Source: Candidatus Iainarchaeum sp. (GTDB taxonomy: Archaea > Nanobdellota > Nanobdellia > Pacearchaeales > GW2011-AR1). From it: DNA of 64,000 bases. The stretch is from assembly GCA_043815085.1 (NCBI GenBank), contig JBDRJG010000001.1, positions 1,594-65,593 on the forward strand, read 5' to 3'. How positions within the stretch are numbered: position 1 is the first letter of the stretch; every line of letters starts with the position of its first letter. Positions 16,394-25,986 of this stretch are shown here, piece by piece. The notes under the pieces are model-generated. The model had not been told where the DNA came from. It made no database searches and worked only from the letters and a program-made list of their open reading frames with translations. The translations under genes were made by a program, and so were the position numbers.

Positions 16394-17104
16394 ATGAACT
16401 TTATAAAAAAAGTGCATGACAGGAAGTTTGATGAAGAAGTCCATCTGCAGTTCCAGAGATTCTCAAAAGGAGAATTCAAAAATAGGGCTATACTAAACGC
16501 AAAATTCTCTGGAGGAAGATATACAATAAATACTAGCGCAGAGTTTGCAAATGAACTTGTGAAAGAAGTTGCAGAAAAATTGGGTTCAAAAAAGACAAAA
16601 GTGAGTGGTGCGATAATCTCCACTTTAGATTTGAAAAAAGATTTGGAATTTAAAGAGATTAAACAATTTCAGGGAGTTAAAAAATATATTCTTGAAAACG
16701 AGATGTCTGGCTCCGAGATTGTTAATTTAATCAATAAATTTCCAAAAGCATTTTTTGCATTAAGTTTTGATGCTGGAGATGAAACCATTCTTAAAACTAA
16801 AGTGAAATCTCCAAAATCTGGAAAGCCAGGAACAAAGGGGGAAGAAGCACCAAAGCCAGATTTCTGCAAATTAGTAACCAAAGACAAAAAAATTGCAGAA
16901 AATTTCATTTTTGAGAAGCCTGAATTTAAGAATGCAAAGGTTGTTCATGATTTTATTATTGAAAATATTAAGATTCCAGATGAACTGAAAGATTCAGAGG
17001 ATTTTGCACTTGTGAGAGAAAAAGCATTGCGCATTGGAAAGATTCTTAGAAAGGCGGAAATCGACGGAGAAAAACTTGTGAGAGAGTTGGATTTTAGTGC
17101 TTGA
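16394..17104 (+). CDS. hypothetical protein (236 aa) immediately upstream of the r-protein operon
   Basis: Long ORF with coding-like composition. No motif recognised. Confidence 0.45.
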   Translation: MNFIKKVHDRKFDEEVHLQFQRFSKGEFKNRAILNAKFSGGRYTINTSAEFANELVKEVAEKLGSKKTKVSGAIISTLDLKKDLEFKEIKQFQGVKKYILENEMSGSEIVNLINKFPKAFFALSFDAGDETILKTKVKSPKSGKPGTKGEEAPKPDFCKLVTKDKKIAENFIFEKPEFKNAKVVHDFIIENIKIPDELKDSEDFALVREKALRIGKILRKAEIDGEKLVRELDFSA

Positions 17105-17202: not shown

Positions 17203-18156
17203 ATGCCTTCAACAAAATCTCCAAGAAAAGGAAGTTTGCAGTTCTGGCCTCGAAAGAGAGTCAACAGATTTTTACCTAGTGTAAACTGGAAAGCTATTAA
17301 TTCTGGAAAGAGTCTAAAGGGGTTTATTGGATACAAGGCAGGGATGGTATCTGTTGAAATTAAGGATTTAACCCCCAATTCTATGACAAAAGATAAAAGA
17401 ATAATTATTCCAGGCACAATAATAGAATGCCCCTCTATGAAAATATTTTCTGTGAGATTCTATAAAAATGGCAGAGTTGCAAAAGAAATTCTTGCTGAAA
17501 ACCCAGATAAAGAACTTAAAAGAAGAGTCAAGCTTCCAAAAGAACATAAATTTAAATTAGATTCTGTAAAAAGTGAAGAATACGACAATGTTTCTATAAT
17601 TGCTTATTCTCAAGTGAAAAAAACAGAGATAAAGAAAAAACCAGATATGACAGAAATTGGATTGAATGGAAGTTTAGATGAAAAAATGAACTTCATTAAA
17701 ACGCATTTAAATAAAGAAATCTCTTTAGCTGAAATTTTCTCTTCAGGAGAACTTGTTGACTTAAGGGGCTTAACAAAAGGAAAAGGTTTTCAGGGCCCAA
17801 TAAAGAGATTTGGGGCCCACTTAAGATTCCACAAATCTGAAAAAGGAGTGAGAAAAATAGGGAGCATTGGACCTTGGCATCCTGCTCGTGTAACTTTCAG
17901 AGTTCCAATGGCCGGGCAGATGGGGATGTTCACACGAGTGCATTATAATCAAAAAATAATTTCCCTAGGCAAAGCACAAGATTCCCAAGATAAACTTAAA
18001 AATCTAAAAAATTATGGAAACCTTAATACAGATTATCTAATTGTTACGGGCTCTGTTCAGGGAGTTCCAAAAAGACCGTTATTAATTACAGCTACTCTTA
18101 GAACGAGCAAAATGCAGAAAAAGAAAAATTATGAATTTTTGGAGATTAAAAGATGA
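17203..18156 (+). CDS. rpl3: ribosomal protein uL3
   Basis: 317 aa. PRKGSLQFWPRKRV is the hallmark L3 N-terminus, and FQGPIKRFG...GSIGPWHP is in the conserved core. Confidence 0.9.
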   Translation: MPSTKSPRKGSLQFWPRKRVNRFLPSVNWKAINSGKSLKGFIGYKAGMVSVEIKDLTPNSMTKDKRIIIPGTIIECPSMKIFSVRFYKNGRVAKEILAENPDKELKRRVKLPKEHKFKLDSVKSEEYDNVSIIAYSQVKKTEIKKKPDMTEIGLNGSLDEKMNFIKTHLNKEISLAEIFSSGELVDLRGLTKGKGFQGPIKRFGAHLRFHKSEKGVRKIGSIGPWHPARVTFRVPMAGQMGMFTRVHYNQKIISLGKAQDSQDKLKNLKNYGNLNTDYLIVTGSVQGVPKRPLLITATLRTSKMQKKKNYEFLEIKR

Positions 18157-18455
18157 GACACAATGTTAACGAAAAAGTTTTGAAGAAAGGAATTGAAGAA
18201 ATTTTCAAAAAGAACATAAATAATGCAGAAAAAGAATTAGCCACACGATTAGAAGAGAGTAAAAATGAAACAGATAAAAAGGTGTTTGATTATTCTTTTA
18301 AAAATTTATATGATGTCAAAGAAAGATATCTTTCTTTGGTAAGTGCTGTCTCACATTATTTAGATAAAAATAAAATAAAAAAATATGAAGCTGAAATAGA
18401 TAATATGATAGATGAAAAAATTAGGGAATTAAAAAATTATATGGATAGTAAATAA
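18153..18455 (+). CDS. hypothetical K/E-rich protein (100 aa) inserted between rpl3 and rpl4
   Basis: Its ATG overlaps the L3 stop (ATGA). Predicted helical, charged protein. Not a known r-protein family. Confidence 0.5.
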   Translation: MRHNVNEKVLKKGIEEIFKKNINNAEKELATRLEESKNETDKKVFDYSFKNLYDVKERYLSLVSAVSHYLDKNKIKKYEAEIDNMIDEKIRELKNYMDSK

Positions 18456-19504: not shown

Positions 19505-20200
19505 ATGGGAAAAAGAATAATTCAACAAGCGCGCGGGCACGGAAGTATGACTTATCAGGCAAAGAAAAAATCTTTTGTCTATAAAATTCAATATCCAAGG
19601 AAACTCCAAGGAGAAGGAACAGTTATAAAGTTGATAAATTCTTCTGCACATAGTGCGCCACTGGCTAAAGTCTTGTACAATGAAGGAAGTTTCTACATTC
19701 CTGCCTTTAAAGAAATGGTTGAAGGCCAAAAAATTTCTTTTGAAGGGGAATTGAAAAATGGGAGCATTCTTCCTCTGGAAAAGATACCAATTAAAACATT
19801 TATATACTGCATTGAATCTCGCCCGGGAGATGGGGGAAAATTTATTAAAACAGCTGGAAGCAATGCGATTGTAACAAGAGTTGTTGGAAATCAGATTTTA
19901 GTTTTAATGCCTTCAAAAAAGGAAAAAAAATTTAATCCAAAATGCAGAGCAATAATAGGGCAGATTGCAGGACATGGAAGATTAGATAAGCCAATTATAA
20001 AGGCCGGAAAAATGCATTATATTAAAAAATCAAAAAATAAATTATGGCCTAGAACAAGCGCAGTTAAAATGAATGCAATAGATCATCCTTTTGGTTCGGG
20101 TAGAGGAAAGAATATTAAGAGCAAAATTGCAAAGCGAAATGCACCTGCTGGAAGAAAAGTTGGCTTAATTAGACCAAAAAGAACAGGTAAAAAGAAATAA
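19505..20200 (+). CDS. rpl2: ribosomal protein uL2
   Basis: 231 aa. MGKRIIQQARGHGS at the N-terminus and the conserved AIDHPFGSGRGKN motif. Confidence 0.9.
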   Translation: MGKRIIQQARGHGSMTYQAKKKSFVYKIQYPRKLQGEGTVIKLINSSAHSAPLAKVLYNEGSFYIPAFKEMVEGQKISFEGELKNGSILPLEKIPIKTFIYCIESRPGDGGKFIKTAGSNAIVTRVVGNQILVLMPSKKEKKFNPKCRAIIGQIAGHGRLDKPIIKAGKMHYIKKSKNKLWPRTSAVKMNAIDHPFGSGRGKNIKSKIAKRNAPAGRKVGLIRPKRTGKKK

Positions 20201-20201
20201 A

Positions 20202-20507
20202 ATGGAAATAACAAATATGTATAATACTTTGAACGGAAATGAATGTCAAAAACATTTAGAAAAGTTAATTAAAAATGAAGCAGAAGGGAGAATAGTAATT
20301 TGGGGGCACAAACATAAAATTGATGTTGAGGATAGCAACACTTTTCATAACATAGCTCAAGAAATGAAGGTCAAAAATATTAACAATTTTTGTGGAGGGT
20401 TACATTATATTGGAGAGGTTGAAAAAGAACTTTGGACAATTTGCCTAGATGATGAATTAAATCAAGCTTTTTTAGACAAATATGGGGAGGAATATCAAAT
20501 TAATTAA
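20202..20507 (+). CDS. hypothetical protein (101 aa) inserted between rpl2 and rps19
   Basis: It starts 2 nt after the L2 stop. The first codons MEIT and 18 nt around the start are identical to the start of rps19 (direct repeat 20199-20216 / 20505-20522). Cys/His-containing. No known family. Confidence 0.5.
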   Translation: MEITNMYNTLNGNECQKHLEKLIKNEAEGRIVIWGHKHKIDVEDSNTFHNIAQEMKVKNINNFCGGLHYIGEVEKELWTICLDDELNQAFLDKYGEEYQIN

Positions 20508-20508
20508 A

Positions 20509-20904
20509 ATGGAAATAACAAAAAAACAAATTACATATAAGGGAAAGACTATTGAAGAGCTGAAAGCCTTGGATGTTCGTGAATTTGCCAAATATCTTCC
20601 GTCAAGAGGAAGGAGAAGTGTTCTCAGAAATTTCCAGAAAATTGAATATTTTACTAAGAGAGCAAAAGAGAAAATTGAAAGAGGAAAAAAGATAAAAACT
20701 CATAATCGAGGATTGGTTATTGTGCCCCAGCTAATCGGAATGAATATTCAAGTTCATAATGGAAGAGCTTTTTTACCTGTTCAAATTGAGCCAGAAATGC
20801 TTGGACACAGATTAGGAGAGATGGCTCTTACAAGATCAAAAGTAACACACAGTAAAGCAGGTGTTGGAGCAACAAAAGGAAGTAAACATAAGGCTAAAAA
20901 ATAA
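20509..20904 (+). CDS. rps19: ribosomal protein uS19
   Basis: MEITKKQITYKGKTIEELKAL...GLVIVPQLIGMNIQVHNGRAFLPVQIEPEMLGHRLGEMALTR matches S19. The ORF-track start at 20482 is an upstream in-frame extension. Confidence 0.85.
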   Translation: MEITKKQITYKGKTIEELKALDVREFAKYLPSRGRRSVLRNFQKIEYFTKRAKEKIERGKKIKTHNRGLVIVPQLIGMNIQVHNGRAFLPVQIEPEMLGHRLGEMALTRSKVTHSKAGVGATKGSKHKAKK

Positions 20905-20906
20905 AA

Positions 20907-21548
20907 ATGACTGAAAAAAGTTACAACCCAAATCAAAAGGAAAAAAAGGCAATGAAAAAACAGCCGAAGCAGATAGAAGCTAAACCAAAACAGCCAGAAA
21001 AAATTGAAACTCCGATAGCTGAAGCTAAACCAAAACAGGAAGAAACTGGTTCAGAAAAAACAGAAGAAAAAAAAATAGATGAAACTTCAAAAACTGAAAA
21101 ACCAGAAGAAAAAAAATCTGAATCAAAAAAACCTGCTAAAAAGATTAAAAAAGAAATTGTGATGGTGAATGCAAAAAGTGTCCCTATTTCTACAAAATAT
21201 GCAATTTATATCTGTAAATTTGTCAAAGGAAAAAGAATAGAAGATGCTATAAGAGATTTAGAGCAGGTTATACTATTAAAAAAAGTTGTTCCAATGAAAG
21301 GAGAATATGCACATCAAAAAGGAAAAGGAATAAGTGGAGGAAAATTCCCTCAAAGAGCTGCAAAATCTTTCATAGTCTTGCTTAAAAGTCTTGCAGGAAA
21401 TGCAAACAATCATGAAATCAACGAACCAATAATAACTGAAGCAATTGCGAACCAAGCTGCAATGCCCTTCGGAAGATTTGGAAGAGTGAGAAGAAAGAGA
21501 ACACACATTACAATTAAAGCAAGAGAAGCAAAGGAGAAGAAAAAATGA
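20907..21548 (+). CDS. rpl22: ribosomal protein uL22 with a roughly 85-aa K/E/P-rich N-terminal extension
   Basis: 213 aa. The C-terminal 130 aa match L22 (AKSVPISTKYAIYICKFVKGKRIEDAIRDLEQV...). The N-terminus is low-complexity (KPKQ/EEKK repeats). Confidence 0.85.
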   Translation: MTEKSYNPNQKEKKAMKKQPKQIEAKPKQPEKIETPIAEAKPKQEETGSEKTEEKKIDETSKTEKPEEKKSESKKPAKKIKKEIVMVNAKSVPISTKYAIYICKFVKGKRIEDAIRDLEQVILLKKVVPMKGEYAHQKGKGISGGKFPQRAAKSFIVLLKSLAGNANNHEINEPIITEAIANQAAMPFGRFGRVRRKRTHITIKAREAKEKKK

Positions 21549-22688: not shown

Positions 22689-22988
22689 ATGGAAATAGAT
22701 CCAACAACAGGATTGCCTTTAGAGGCAATAGAATGGGAAAACCTCACAAGGGGTTCGCAAAGGATAACCGTGAAAACAGACAAAAAACGATATGGAAAAC
22801 TCGTGACTGTTATAAGTGGATTTGACAAGGGAGTCGATGTGAAGAAAATCGCAAAAAGTCTGAAAAATGAACTGGCTTGCGGTGGAACTTACAAAGACGA
22901 TAAAATAGAACTCCAAGGAGACCACATGAGAAAAATAAAACCAATTTTGGTAAGACTTGGTTTTGACAACAACTCAGTAGAGGAATAA
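22689..22988 (+). CDS. sui1: translation initiation factor SUI1 (aIF1)
   Basis: 99 aa. GKLVTVISGFDKGVDVKKIAKSLKNELACGGTYKDDKIELQGDHMRKIKPILVRLGF matches the SUI1 core. Confidence 0.85.
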   Translation: MEIDPTTGLPLEAIEWENLTRGSQRITVKTDKKRYGKLVTVISGFDKGVDVKKIAKSLKNELACGGTYKDDKIELQGDHMRKIKPILVRLGFDNNSVEE

Positions 22989-25365: not shown

Positions 25366-25595
25366 TGACCGCGAGTGATTGGAAAAAAATATTGAAACAG
25401 CTCGATGCTAAACCAGTTATAAAACAGAAATATATAAAACATAATAAACCGAGAGAAAGAAAGACAGGAATTGCTGCCAAAAAATGCGAGAGATGCGGAA
25501 GATTTGGAGCACATATAAAATCATACGGATTAAATTTATGTCGACACTGCGTTAGAGGAATAGCAGTTGAAATCGGCTTTCAAAAATACAGTTAA
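25365..25595 (+). CDS. rps14: ribosomal protein uS14 (Zn-binding type Z)
   Basis: CERCGRFGAHIKSYGLNLCRHCVRGIAVEIGFQKYS is the C4 zinc-ribbon S14 signature. 76 aa including an N-terminal extension. Confidence 0.8.
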   Translation: MTASDWKKILKQLDAKPVIKQKYIKHNKPRERKTGIAAKKCERCGRFGAHIKSYGLNLCRHCVRGIAVEIGFQKYS

Positions 25596-25596
25596 A

Positions 25597-25986
25597 ATGG
25601 AAACAACAACAGAAATAAAAAATAATGAAAAAGAATATATGAAAGAAATAGATTTCCTTGGGGTGTTACAATTTCAATATTGGATAAATAAAAAATTATG
25701 TAGAGATAATCCAAATAAAGATTATGTCTTCTTAGATGAAGGACTGGGTAAAGGAGAATTTGTTAAATTGATTAAAGAAGGAGAAAAAATTATGGTAAAA
25801 ACTTTTGATATTAAGGGTTATGGTGATTTAGAAGGAAATCTAATTGAGGTTAAAACAGTAAAACAAGGGTACCCCTTAAGTGTATCTGTTTATAGAAATT
25901 TTGATAAAACAAAAGATTCTAAGAAACAACAAATTTATTATGATGCTCTTAAGAAATCTAAATTTTATAATGGAGTTAAAAACTAA
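25597..25986 (+). CDS. hypothetical protein (about 129 aa from METTTEIKNN) inserted between rps14 and rps8
   Basis: It starts 2 nt after the S14 stop and ends 2 nt before the S8 ATG. No known family. The ORF track's upstream start at 25567 overlaps S14. Confidence 0.5.
   Translation: METTTEIKNNEKEYMKEIDFLGVLQFQYWINKKLCRDNPNKDYVFLDEGLGKGEFVKLIKEGEKIMVKTFDIKGYGDLEGNLIEVKTVKQGYPLSVSVYRNFDKTKDSKKQQIYYDALKKSKFYNGVKN

Follow-up and report, generated by a model that had tools for sequence, protein, structure and literature searches.

The 64,000-nucleotide stretch of DNA considered here (the window) comes from Candidatus Iainarchaeum sp. (GenBank assembly GCA_043815085.1, contig JBDRJG010000001.1, positions 1,594 to 65,593 of the forward strand) and encodes on its + strand an archaeal S10-type ribosomal-protein operon with the gene order L3, L4, L23, L2, S19, L22, S3, L29, SUI1, S17, L14 and onward. 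In this operon an open reading frame (ORF) of 101 codons is placed between rpl2 and rps19. Measured against the ancestral L2-S19 junction this ORF is inserted, and its product belongs to an undescribed family of small (approximately 100 aa) acidic alpha/beta proteins that is restricted to the DPANN archaea. The best explanation of its structure and distribution, to which we assign a probability of roughly 55%, is that it represents a promoterless, translationally coupled accessory cassette of the ribosomal superoperon, inserted by recombination within a stop-start junction. The features on which the argument is built are the following:

19505 to 20200, + strand: rpl2 (uL2), 231 aa, Pfam Ribosomal_L2_C (E 8.8e-35), with orthologs at 48-85% identity in 46 genomes

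20198 to 20215, + strand: direct repeat copy 1, TAAAATGGAAATAACAAA, comprising the L2 stop, a 1-nt spacer, and the ATG of the inserted ORF with its codons 2-4 and 2 further nt

20202 to 20507, + strand: inserted ORF, 101 aa, starting MEITNMYNTLNGNECQKHLEK; from the stop-start layout, coupled to L2 upstream and to S19 downstream

20505 to 20522, + strand: direct repeat copy 2, TAAAATGGAAATAACAAA, comprising the stop TAA of the inserted ORF, a 1-nt spacer, and the rps19 ATG with its codons 2-4 and 2 further nt

20509 to 20904, + strand: rps19 (uS19), 131 aa, starting MEITKKQ, Pfam Ribosomal_S19 (E 2.3e-22)

There is no intergenic DNA on either side of the inserted ORF. Both of its borders read TAA-A-ATG, within TAAAATG(G), the usual junction motif of this operon; the rpl2 stop (TAA, 20198-20200) provides the opening 3 nt of the first repeat copy, and the rps19 start was chosen by aligning 44 orthologous junctions. 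A preliminary description, made from the letters of this DNA, had reported the repeat, locating copy 2 correctly at 20505-20522 and copy 1 one base too high, at 20199-20216 instead of 20198-20215. It had also proposed that the ORF captured the ribosome-binding site of S19, which must be withdrawn: the repeat has just TAAA ahead of the ATG, that is, stop-start coupling and no Shine-Dalgarno sequence.

The two copies of TAAAATGGAAATAACAAA lie 307 nt apart and are its only exact matches in the 64 kb of the window. If up to two mismatches are permitted, chance alone would give 0.14 matches, and none of 100 shuffles yielded three or more; a near-copy with two mismatches is found at 25593-25610, at another gene start of the same operon. 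The repeat opens with 8 generic nt, as TAAAATGG occurs 13 times in the window, seven of them at junctions of the ribosomal operon (including L23-L2, the junction of S3 with the preceding 86-codon ORF86, and the near-copy site at 25593), and the repeat-specific part is therefore about 10 nt. These counts bear on the proposal that the repeat is no footprint at all and that the generic TAAAATGG motif simply coincides with two independently A-rich N-termini, MEIT-N and MEIT-K. The seven operon junctions with this motif speak for such a coincidence, as do the frequent opening of window genes with ATGGAA (15 of 77) or with ATGGAAAT (three), the differences between the two copies in the related locus L001 (related loci carry L numbers), where the upstream copy has one change and the downstream copy a 3-nt indel, and the 5' codons of the L058 homolog, which belong to the gene whatever its neighbour. 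Conversely, across the 2926 gene-start pairs of the window the prefix shared from the ATG onwards reaches at most 12 nt, against 14 nt, plus 4 nt upstream, for the inserted ORF and S19; in addition, a start of the type MEI(T/I) is common to the largest subgroup of the family and to the S19 of the same clade, and L2-S19 is the commonest site of the family. A purely coincidental repeat is thus rather unlikely.

A search of positions 20100-20620 for inverted repeats gave 0 pairs, and an Rfam search found no RNA family overlapping the ORF, whose RNA fold z-score of +1.15 is nothing unusual. Within the ORF there is an imperfect 26-nt direct repeat (85% identity, 20236-20261 and 20361-20386), which is probably a product of chance.

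The ancestral state of the junction was examined by a genome scan with the L2 protein, which retrieved the 46 related genomes mentioned above (at species level, with Nano-, Woese- or Pacearchaeota as their labels). In approximately 30 of these the L2 stop TAA is followed by 1 nt and the S19 ATG (TAA, 1 nt, ATGGAAATA...), a typical empty junction reading TAAaATGGAAATA(C/A)(A/C)AAAAAAACAA, and merging the two copies of the window produces TAAaATGGAAATAACAAAAAAACAA, which is identical to the L2-S19 junction of L027 and L028. Since about 30 relatives share the arrangement of stop, 1 nt and ATG, and two of them match the collapsed sequence exactly, the ORF is extra relative to the ancestral junction. 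This bears out the preliminary description, in which collapsing the copies was predicted to bring the rps19 ATG right after the rpl2 stop; the genomes nearest to the window, L003 and L004, also lack the ORF.

The same structure could also have come from rps19 itself, had 307 bp at its 5' side been duplicated in tandem and then diverged; a 307-nt copy taken from the L2 stop would yield an ORF of exactly 101 codons, with the copied TAA as its stop. However, hhalign comparison of the family profile with the S19 of the window returned a probability of 0.1%, there is no similarity past the first four codons, and the family is also found beside S3, beside S5 and outside ribosomal operons. This origin is extremely improbable and effectively refuted by that lack of similarity, and the hhalign value led to the rejection of a diverged S19 copy.

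Some genomes hold other sequences at L2-S19. A mini-ORF of 15-17 codons (e.g. MKNKFFKNIKLGDFA and a stop) occupies the junction in L003 (3567-3616), L047 (2964-3016), L025 (4702-4761) and L032 (4699-4738); in the first three its stop overlaps the S19 ATG as TAATG, with GGAG about 11 nt ahead of that ATG, and L003 and L047 both have it despite belonging to different subclades. In L023 (4705-5219) the site is taken by an unrelated ORF of approximately 169 aa without a Pfam match.

The ATG at 20202 is likely the start codon of the inserted ORF, because each operon context of the family has an in-frame ATG directly behind the upstream stop, several homologs have no second Met (MEIINVDG, MEIVKIDG, METINVYG), and residues 2-6, which overlap the MEI(T/I)N start conserved in the subfamily, form a strand in the AlphaFold2 model with a predicted local distance difference test (pLDDT) of about 93. 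On the other side of the repeat, the S19 of this clade natively starts MEI(Q/T/I)KKQ in ORF-bearing and ORF-less genomes alike. Encoded at L22-S3 in L058, a homolog with 47% protein identity shares the 25-nt 5' end of the window gene (TAAAATGGAAATAACAAATATGTAT); the MEITN codons are therefore by now part of the gene and accompany it. The capture of the first four S19 codons, proposed in the preliminary description, is accordingly doubtful as a local and recent event; an old capture of the S19 start by the subfamily is plausible, and a match of MEITN and S19 by coincidence is also possible.

The distribution of the gene is patchy. In a neighbour-joining tree of concatenated ribosomal proteins the carriers are scattered, the window grouping with the ORF-less L003 and L004 and L001 with the ORF-less L006. 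Compared with its flanks, the ORF shows reduced synonymous divergence in three genome pairs. Specifically, between the window and L001 the proportion of synonymous differences (pS) is 0.315 for the ORF (0.41 as synonymous substitutions per site, dS) and 0.51-0.71 per gene for seven flanking genes (dS 0.85-2.2; pooled pS 0.603), and none of 2000 resampled flank sets was as low as the ORF (Fisher p 8e-5). Between the window and L055 the ORF has a pS of 0.374 against 0.598 for the flanks (4 of 2000 resampled flank sets as low), and between L001 and L055 the figures are 0.352 and 0.585 (2 of 2000). The GC content at third codon positions of the ORF, 0.235, is similar to that of its neighbours. The ribosomal proteins of the window and of L003, its sister without the ORF, differ by a dS of 0.67-1.3, which exceeds the divergence of the ORF between the window and L001. 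Since the ORF is less diverged at synonymous sites than its flanks, at least one lineage acquired or exchanged it after the host lineages had split. The similarity between the window and L001 is moreover mosaic, with 90% nucleotide identity over codons 1-76 (58 of 64 same-residue codons identical) and 75% over codons 77-101 (9 of 16). From these comparisons of sequence, the data suggest that the cassette, or parts of it, has been horizontally exchanged among related genomes, with boundaries at or within the cassette. A raised L2 3'-end identity between the window and L001 was considered as a sign of co-conversion and rejected, as it reflects the general conservation of this region.

The alternative to be weighed against such exchange is an old, vertically inherited gene: a single deep insertion at L2-S19 followed by many precise losses between the repeats, with identity kept by coding constraint and no horizontal movement. 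The presence of the gene at the same junction in the distant L033, L053 and L056 agrees with this account, the strong conservation of the upstream copy among carriers likewise, and the empty junctions, being perfectly clean, are what scar-free loss between direct repeats would leave. Nevertheless, in three genome pairs the synonymous divergence of the ORF amounts to about 40% of the flank value, and it also lies under the window-L003 value given above, 5 or 6 independent losses would be required inside one small clade, and family members are also encoded at L22-S3 and L18-S5. Purely vertical descent is thus unlikely, although its probability is not negligible.

In total, 16 distinct genomic contexts of family members were gathered. 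Seven have the order L2, ORF, S19 (the window, L001/L005, L002, L055, L056, L033 and L053/L054), five are located at L18-S5 (L049, L061, L063, L066 and L065), two immediately 5' of S3 (in L058 behind L22 and in L059 behind another uncharacterised ORF), and two outside the operon, after rpoN (L068) and among unannotated small genes (L051). L001, L049, L058, L061, L063 and L066 come from the Hainich groundwater metagenomes H43, H51 and H32. The family gene is therefore found in a ribosomal-protein operon and immediately 5' of a small-subunit gene in 14 of 16 contexts (S19 seven times, S5 five times and S3 twice); the chance of all three junctions preceding a small-subunit gene is approximately 0.03, a rough and post hoc figure that assumes about 21 junctions, seven of them before such a gene. 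Across the operon contexts an in-frame ATG almost always begins 1 base behind the upstream stop, and the next ATG comes 1-2 bases behind the stop of the family gene. A narrower metagenome scan for the family gave four loci, one of them spurious.

The two borders of the gene are kept to different degrees. The 5' junction (copy 1) is identical over 25 nt in L002 and L058 and has 1-2 changes in L001 and L055. The repeat itself has its full 18 nt in the window, agrees in 16 of 18 positions (14 contiguous) in L055, covers 7-8 nt in L001, L033 and L053, and is not shared at all in L049; in the distant carriers at L2-S19 (L033, L053 and L056) just TAAAATG(G) is repeated. In L059, ATAAAATGGAA stands on both sides of the family gene. 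A long repeat is thus found only in the subclade of the window, and the distant carriers have only the generic motif. The view of a new gene recently planted in the operon could not be maintained, because the family comprises at least 57 clusters and the distant L033, L053 and L056 hold the gene at the same junction without the long repeat, the very finding that the preliminary description had named as refuting a recent insertion. Two further arrangements were observed. L065 (1-842) has two family genes in tandem just 5' of S5, with the 13-nt junction ATAGGATAAAATG recurring between them, and in the L18-S5 carriers L049, L061, L063 and L066 the gene order is rearranged, S5 being followed by one to three small uncharacterised ORFs and S3, then by L29 in L049 and L066.

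At the protein level, a word-indexed search found the same sequence at NCBI as ABIE36_00160, labelled "Candidatus Diapherotrites archaeon", along with two homologs of 79% and 59% identity. The A1 profile, run against 1.84 billion cluster representatives (clusters at 50% identity), retrieved 57 at E<1e-3, 20 of them at E<1e-10, all 82-122 aa in length except one 1336-aa multi-stretch match, and the ORF of the window scores E 1e-39 against the A2 hidden Markov model of the family. The ratio of nonsynonymous to synonymous divergence (dN/dS) in close pairs within the subclade of the window is 0.21-0.36, and the low ratio shows that the ORF is a genuine protein-coding gene under purifying selection. 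An alignment of 38 sequences displays the motifs YLExL, WGHK, FHxIAQ, WTxxLD and FLxKYGxxYxI (consensus ...YLExL.G....WGHK...V.D.D.FH.IAQ...WT..LD....FL.KYG..Y.I), with K37, F48, L82, F90 and Y98 as the only residues conserved in at least 90% of the members. The product had been portrayed as Cys/His-containing and of unknown family. The first trait is not one of the family, since no Cys/His ligand set is conserved in the 38 sequences (C15, C64 and C81 vary, as do most His), and a small zinc-binding Cys/His protein, a candidate that was considered, is disfavoured for the same reason. The second stands insofar as Pfam, PHROGs, PADLOC and NCBIfam gave no significant match for the ORF and the 38 family members, yet the protein is not a lone orphan.

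AlphaFold2 modelling with the 38-sequence alignment, a step already envisaged in the preliminary description, gave a confident alpha/beta model (pLDDT 94.7, predicted template modelling score 0.86) with the element order beta(2-6), alpha(10-26), beta, beta, alpha(45-54), beta, beta, beta, alpha(84-97). Foldseek searches of PDB and BFVD with this model found nothing at E<1e-3. The best PDB matches (approximately 20) are nearly all large-subunit chains of 66-78 residues, which we take to be eL38, and they are weak (E 0.03-0.2, template modelling score 0.36 by query and 0.42-0.52 by target). These matches, together with the location of the gene within a ribosomal operon and its translational coupling, are what would favour a ribosomal protein peculiar to this lineage or a protein structurally analogous to eL38. 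Besides the weakness of the matches, this possibility is countered by the lack of an eL38 match in Pfam and an hhalign probability of 1% against a human eL38 sequence, by the acidic isoelectric point of the protein (5.0; family median 5.3), compared with about 10 for the neighbouring ribosomal proteins, and by the lack of the gene in most close relatives. We consider it very unlikely.

A selfish gene resembling the free-standing homing endonucleases, targeting the L2-S19 junction, would likewise be patchy, lie between highly conserved essential genes and be younger than its flanks. Nevertheless, no nuclease family or motif, whether LAGLIDADG, HNH, GIY-YIG or PD-(D/E)xK, was detected by Pfam, PHROGs, NCBIfam or PADLOC in the 38 members, no LAGLIDADG, HNH or GIY-YIG structures are among the Foldseek PDB matches, the protein is acidic and has only 101 aa, co-conversion of the flanks is lacking, and the viral contigs of IMG/VR contain no relative of the family. 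Such an element is highly improbable here. The free-standing homing endonuclease genes of phages are nonetheless comparable in being small sporadic ORFs between conserved essential genes.

Regarding the function of the protein, our suggestion is tentative and held with low confidence: it may accompany, as a non-essential partner or escort, either the translation apparatus or the basic small-subunit protein encoded downstream. Eukaryotes possess dedicated chaperones of ribosomal proteins, such as Yar1 for uS3 and Tsr4 for uS5. By analogy with these, a small acidic protein would here be paired genetically with a basic small-subunit protein (uS19, uS3 or uS5, in the 14 operon contexts). The likeness is one of functional analogy between systems with no relationship in sequence or fold.

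The recombination mechanism that would account for the cassette can be outlined as follows. Expression would proceed by termination-reinitiation, from the upstream TAA over 1 nt to the ATG of the cassette and from its own TAA over 1 nt to the ATG of the next gene. The 18-nt repeat would correspond to the duplicated L2-stop/S19-start junction, generated by entry of the cassette or by its re-exchange through recombination at this site. Campbell-type integration of a circle with one copy of the junction would yield the observed structure, and so might a short-homology insertion of a linear fragment with both ends matching the single junction of the recipient. No dedicated recombinase would be needed in either case, both translational couplings would stay intact, and precise, scar-free excision would be possible, fitting the clean empty sites. 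At other junctions the crossing-over may take place within the generic TAAAATGG(AA), which would fit L059, and the tandem pair of L065 is what unequal exchange between such repeats would be expected to produce. The cassette would in this manner have spread among related genomes and to at least three junctions, each 5' of S19, S3 or S5.

Several observations weigh against this explanation. No circular intermediate, empty-site polymorphism or recombinase was seen, and for this reason the mechanism rests on the end sequences only. In the distant carriers L033, L053 and L049 the repeat is no longer than the generic 7-8 nt, so that duplication of the junction is demonstrable only in the subclade of the window. 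Between the window and L002 there is no deficit in synonymous divergence (pS 0.546 for the ORF and 0.568 for the flanks; 804 of 2000 resampled flank sets as low), and low synonymous divergence in the other pairs could in principle stem from an unrecognised constraint instead of transfer. A co-converted or co-transferred tract was sought in the flanks and not detected: at the 3' end of L2 and the 5' end of S19 the window is no more identical to L001 than to ORF-less genomes. The MEITN codons may be native to the gene, given the 5' end of L058 at a different junction, in which case the match with S19 would be partly coincidental. Finally, the proposed function lacks homology support and the association with small-subunit genes is post hoc (p of about 0.03).

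Several known systems share part of these features. Integron cassettes are, like the one described here, promoterless single-ORF units located downstream of a resident strong promoter, with short repeated sites and a patchy distribution, and they may stand in tandem, as in the one contig of L065. Precise excision is possible in principle in both, the movement of the cassette studied here being deduced from comparisons and not observed. The differences are that there is no attC-like imperfect inverted repeat, that the site of the cassette is a stop-start junction of an essential operon, and that the length of its repeat varies between loci (8-18 nt). Among the operon genes of the window and of the inspected loci there is no tyrosine-recombinase integrase; the rest of the genome was not screened.

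Resemblance to the target-site duplication of a transposon lies in the direct repeats of host sequence that flank the insert and in the restoration of the empty site upon their collapse. In contrast to transposons, there are no terminal inverted repeats and no transposase, the sole ORF between the repeats being the 101-aa one without Pfam, PHROGs or NCBIfam match; 18 nt is long for a target-site duplication, the length is not constant among carriers, and the repeat supplies a functional stop and start.

Archaeal ribosomal operons are known to hold non-ribosomal genes, such as those for aIF1/SUI1, the RNase P protein Rpp29, adenylate kinase and SecY, and in the spc operon of Methanococcus once-anonymous ORFs turned out to encode S4e, L32e and L19e. 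The inserted ORF resembles these embedded non-ribosomal genes in being co-transcribed and tightly packed with ribosomal genes, among which SUI1 is present in this very operon (22689-22988). The embedded genes are broadly conserved in archaea, whereas the family studied here is found in few DPANN lineages, is lacking in most close relatives and changes its junction.

The insertion at L2-S19 is accompanied by others in the same operon. Approximately 50 related loci (L001-L059) contain 91 intercalated ORFs in 53 clusters, 43 of them singletons; the 53 clusters include a few ribosomal-protein genes (L29, L22) too diverged for recognition by tblastn. The family of the inserted ORF is the sole cluster found at three junctions, while the L018/L030 and L023/L059 clusters occur at two each. 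In the window, two further intercalated ORFs were detected, neither of which copies the start of the gene downstream:

18153 to 18455, + strand, in the operon: ORF100, 100 aa, between L3 and L4, without a family match and with a homolog of 72% identity at the same junction in L006

21545 to 21805, + strand, in the operon: ORF86, 86 aa, between L22 and S3, without a family match

At the L22-S3 junction of L001 there is an unrelated ORF of 86 aa. In nine genomes (L056, at 1403-2050, L014, L016, L019, L020, L023, L025, L031 and L048) L4 and L23 are separated by a gene of 203-242 aa, the copy of L056 being annotated as PF00929 (RNase_T). The L22 of the window (20907-21548) is unusually long, 213 aa, with a K/E/P-rich N-terminal extension, the DNA of which contains short near-tandem repeats at 20976-21116 (copies of 25 nt at a distance of 45 nt, and of 21 nt at a distance of 42 nt). 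Upstream of L3, the window encodes a 236-aa protein without a Pfam match (16394-17104), and L001 (950-1660) also has a 236-aa ORF without a Pfam match upstream of L3.

An accessory gene embedded in a conserved operon is in itself of a known kind. In the literature reached by a limited search, neither this family, with its changing junctions, nor such intercalated ORFs had been described. A broader proposal, which we regard as speculative and rather improbable in its entirety, is that the superoperon of Pace/Woesearchaeota-type DPANN archaea serves as an integrase-less, integron-like landing platform, where promoterless cassettes of one gene each, with this family as the clearest case, would enter, leave, duplicate and hop by recombination at TAAAATGG-type sites, and that this family would provide an acidic partner or escort of uS19, uS3 and uS5.

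The S10-spc cluster is regarded as the most stable gene order of prokaryotes and forms the backbone of marker-gene phylogenies and of the binning of metagenome-assembled genomes. In organisms with very small genomes, this same cluster repeatedly takes in and exchanges small accessory genes with its translational coupling unbroken. This is a warning for the synteny-based annotation of these operons. It also offers a model for how a gene may be slipped into an essential polycistron, by duplication of a stop-start junction, and supplies a set of uncharacterised proteins with guaranteed high, ribosome-linked expression in little-known organisms.

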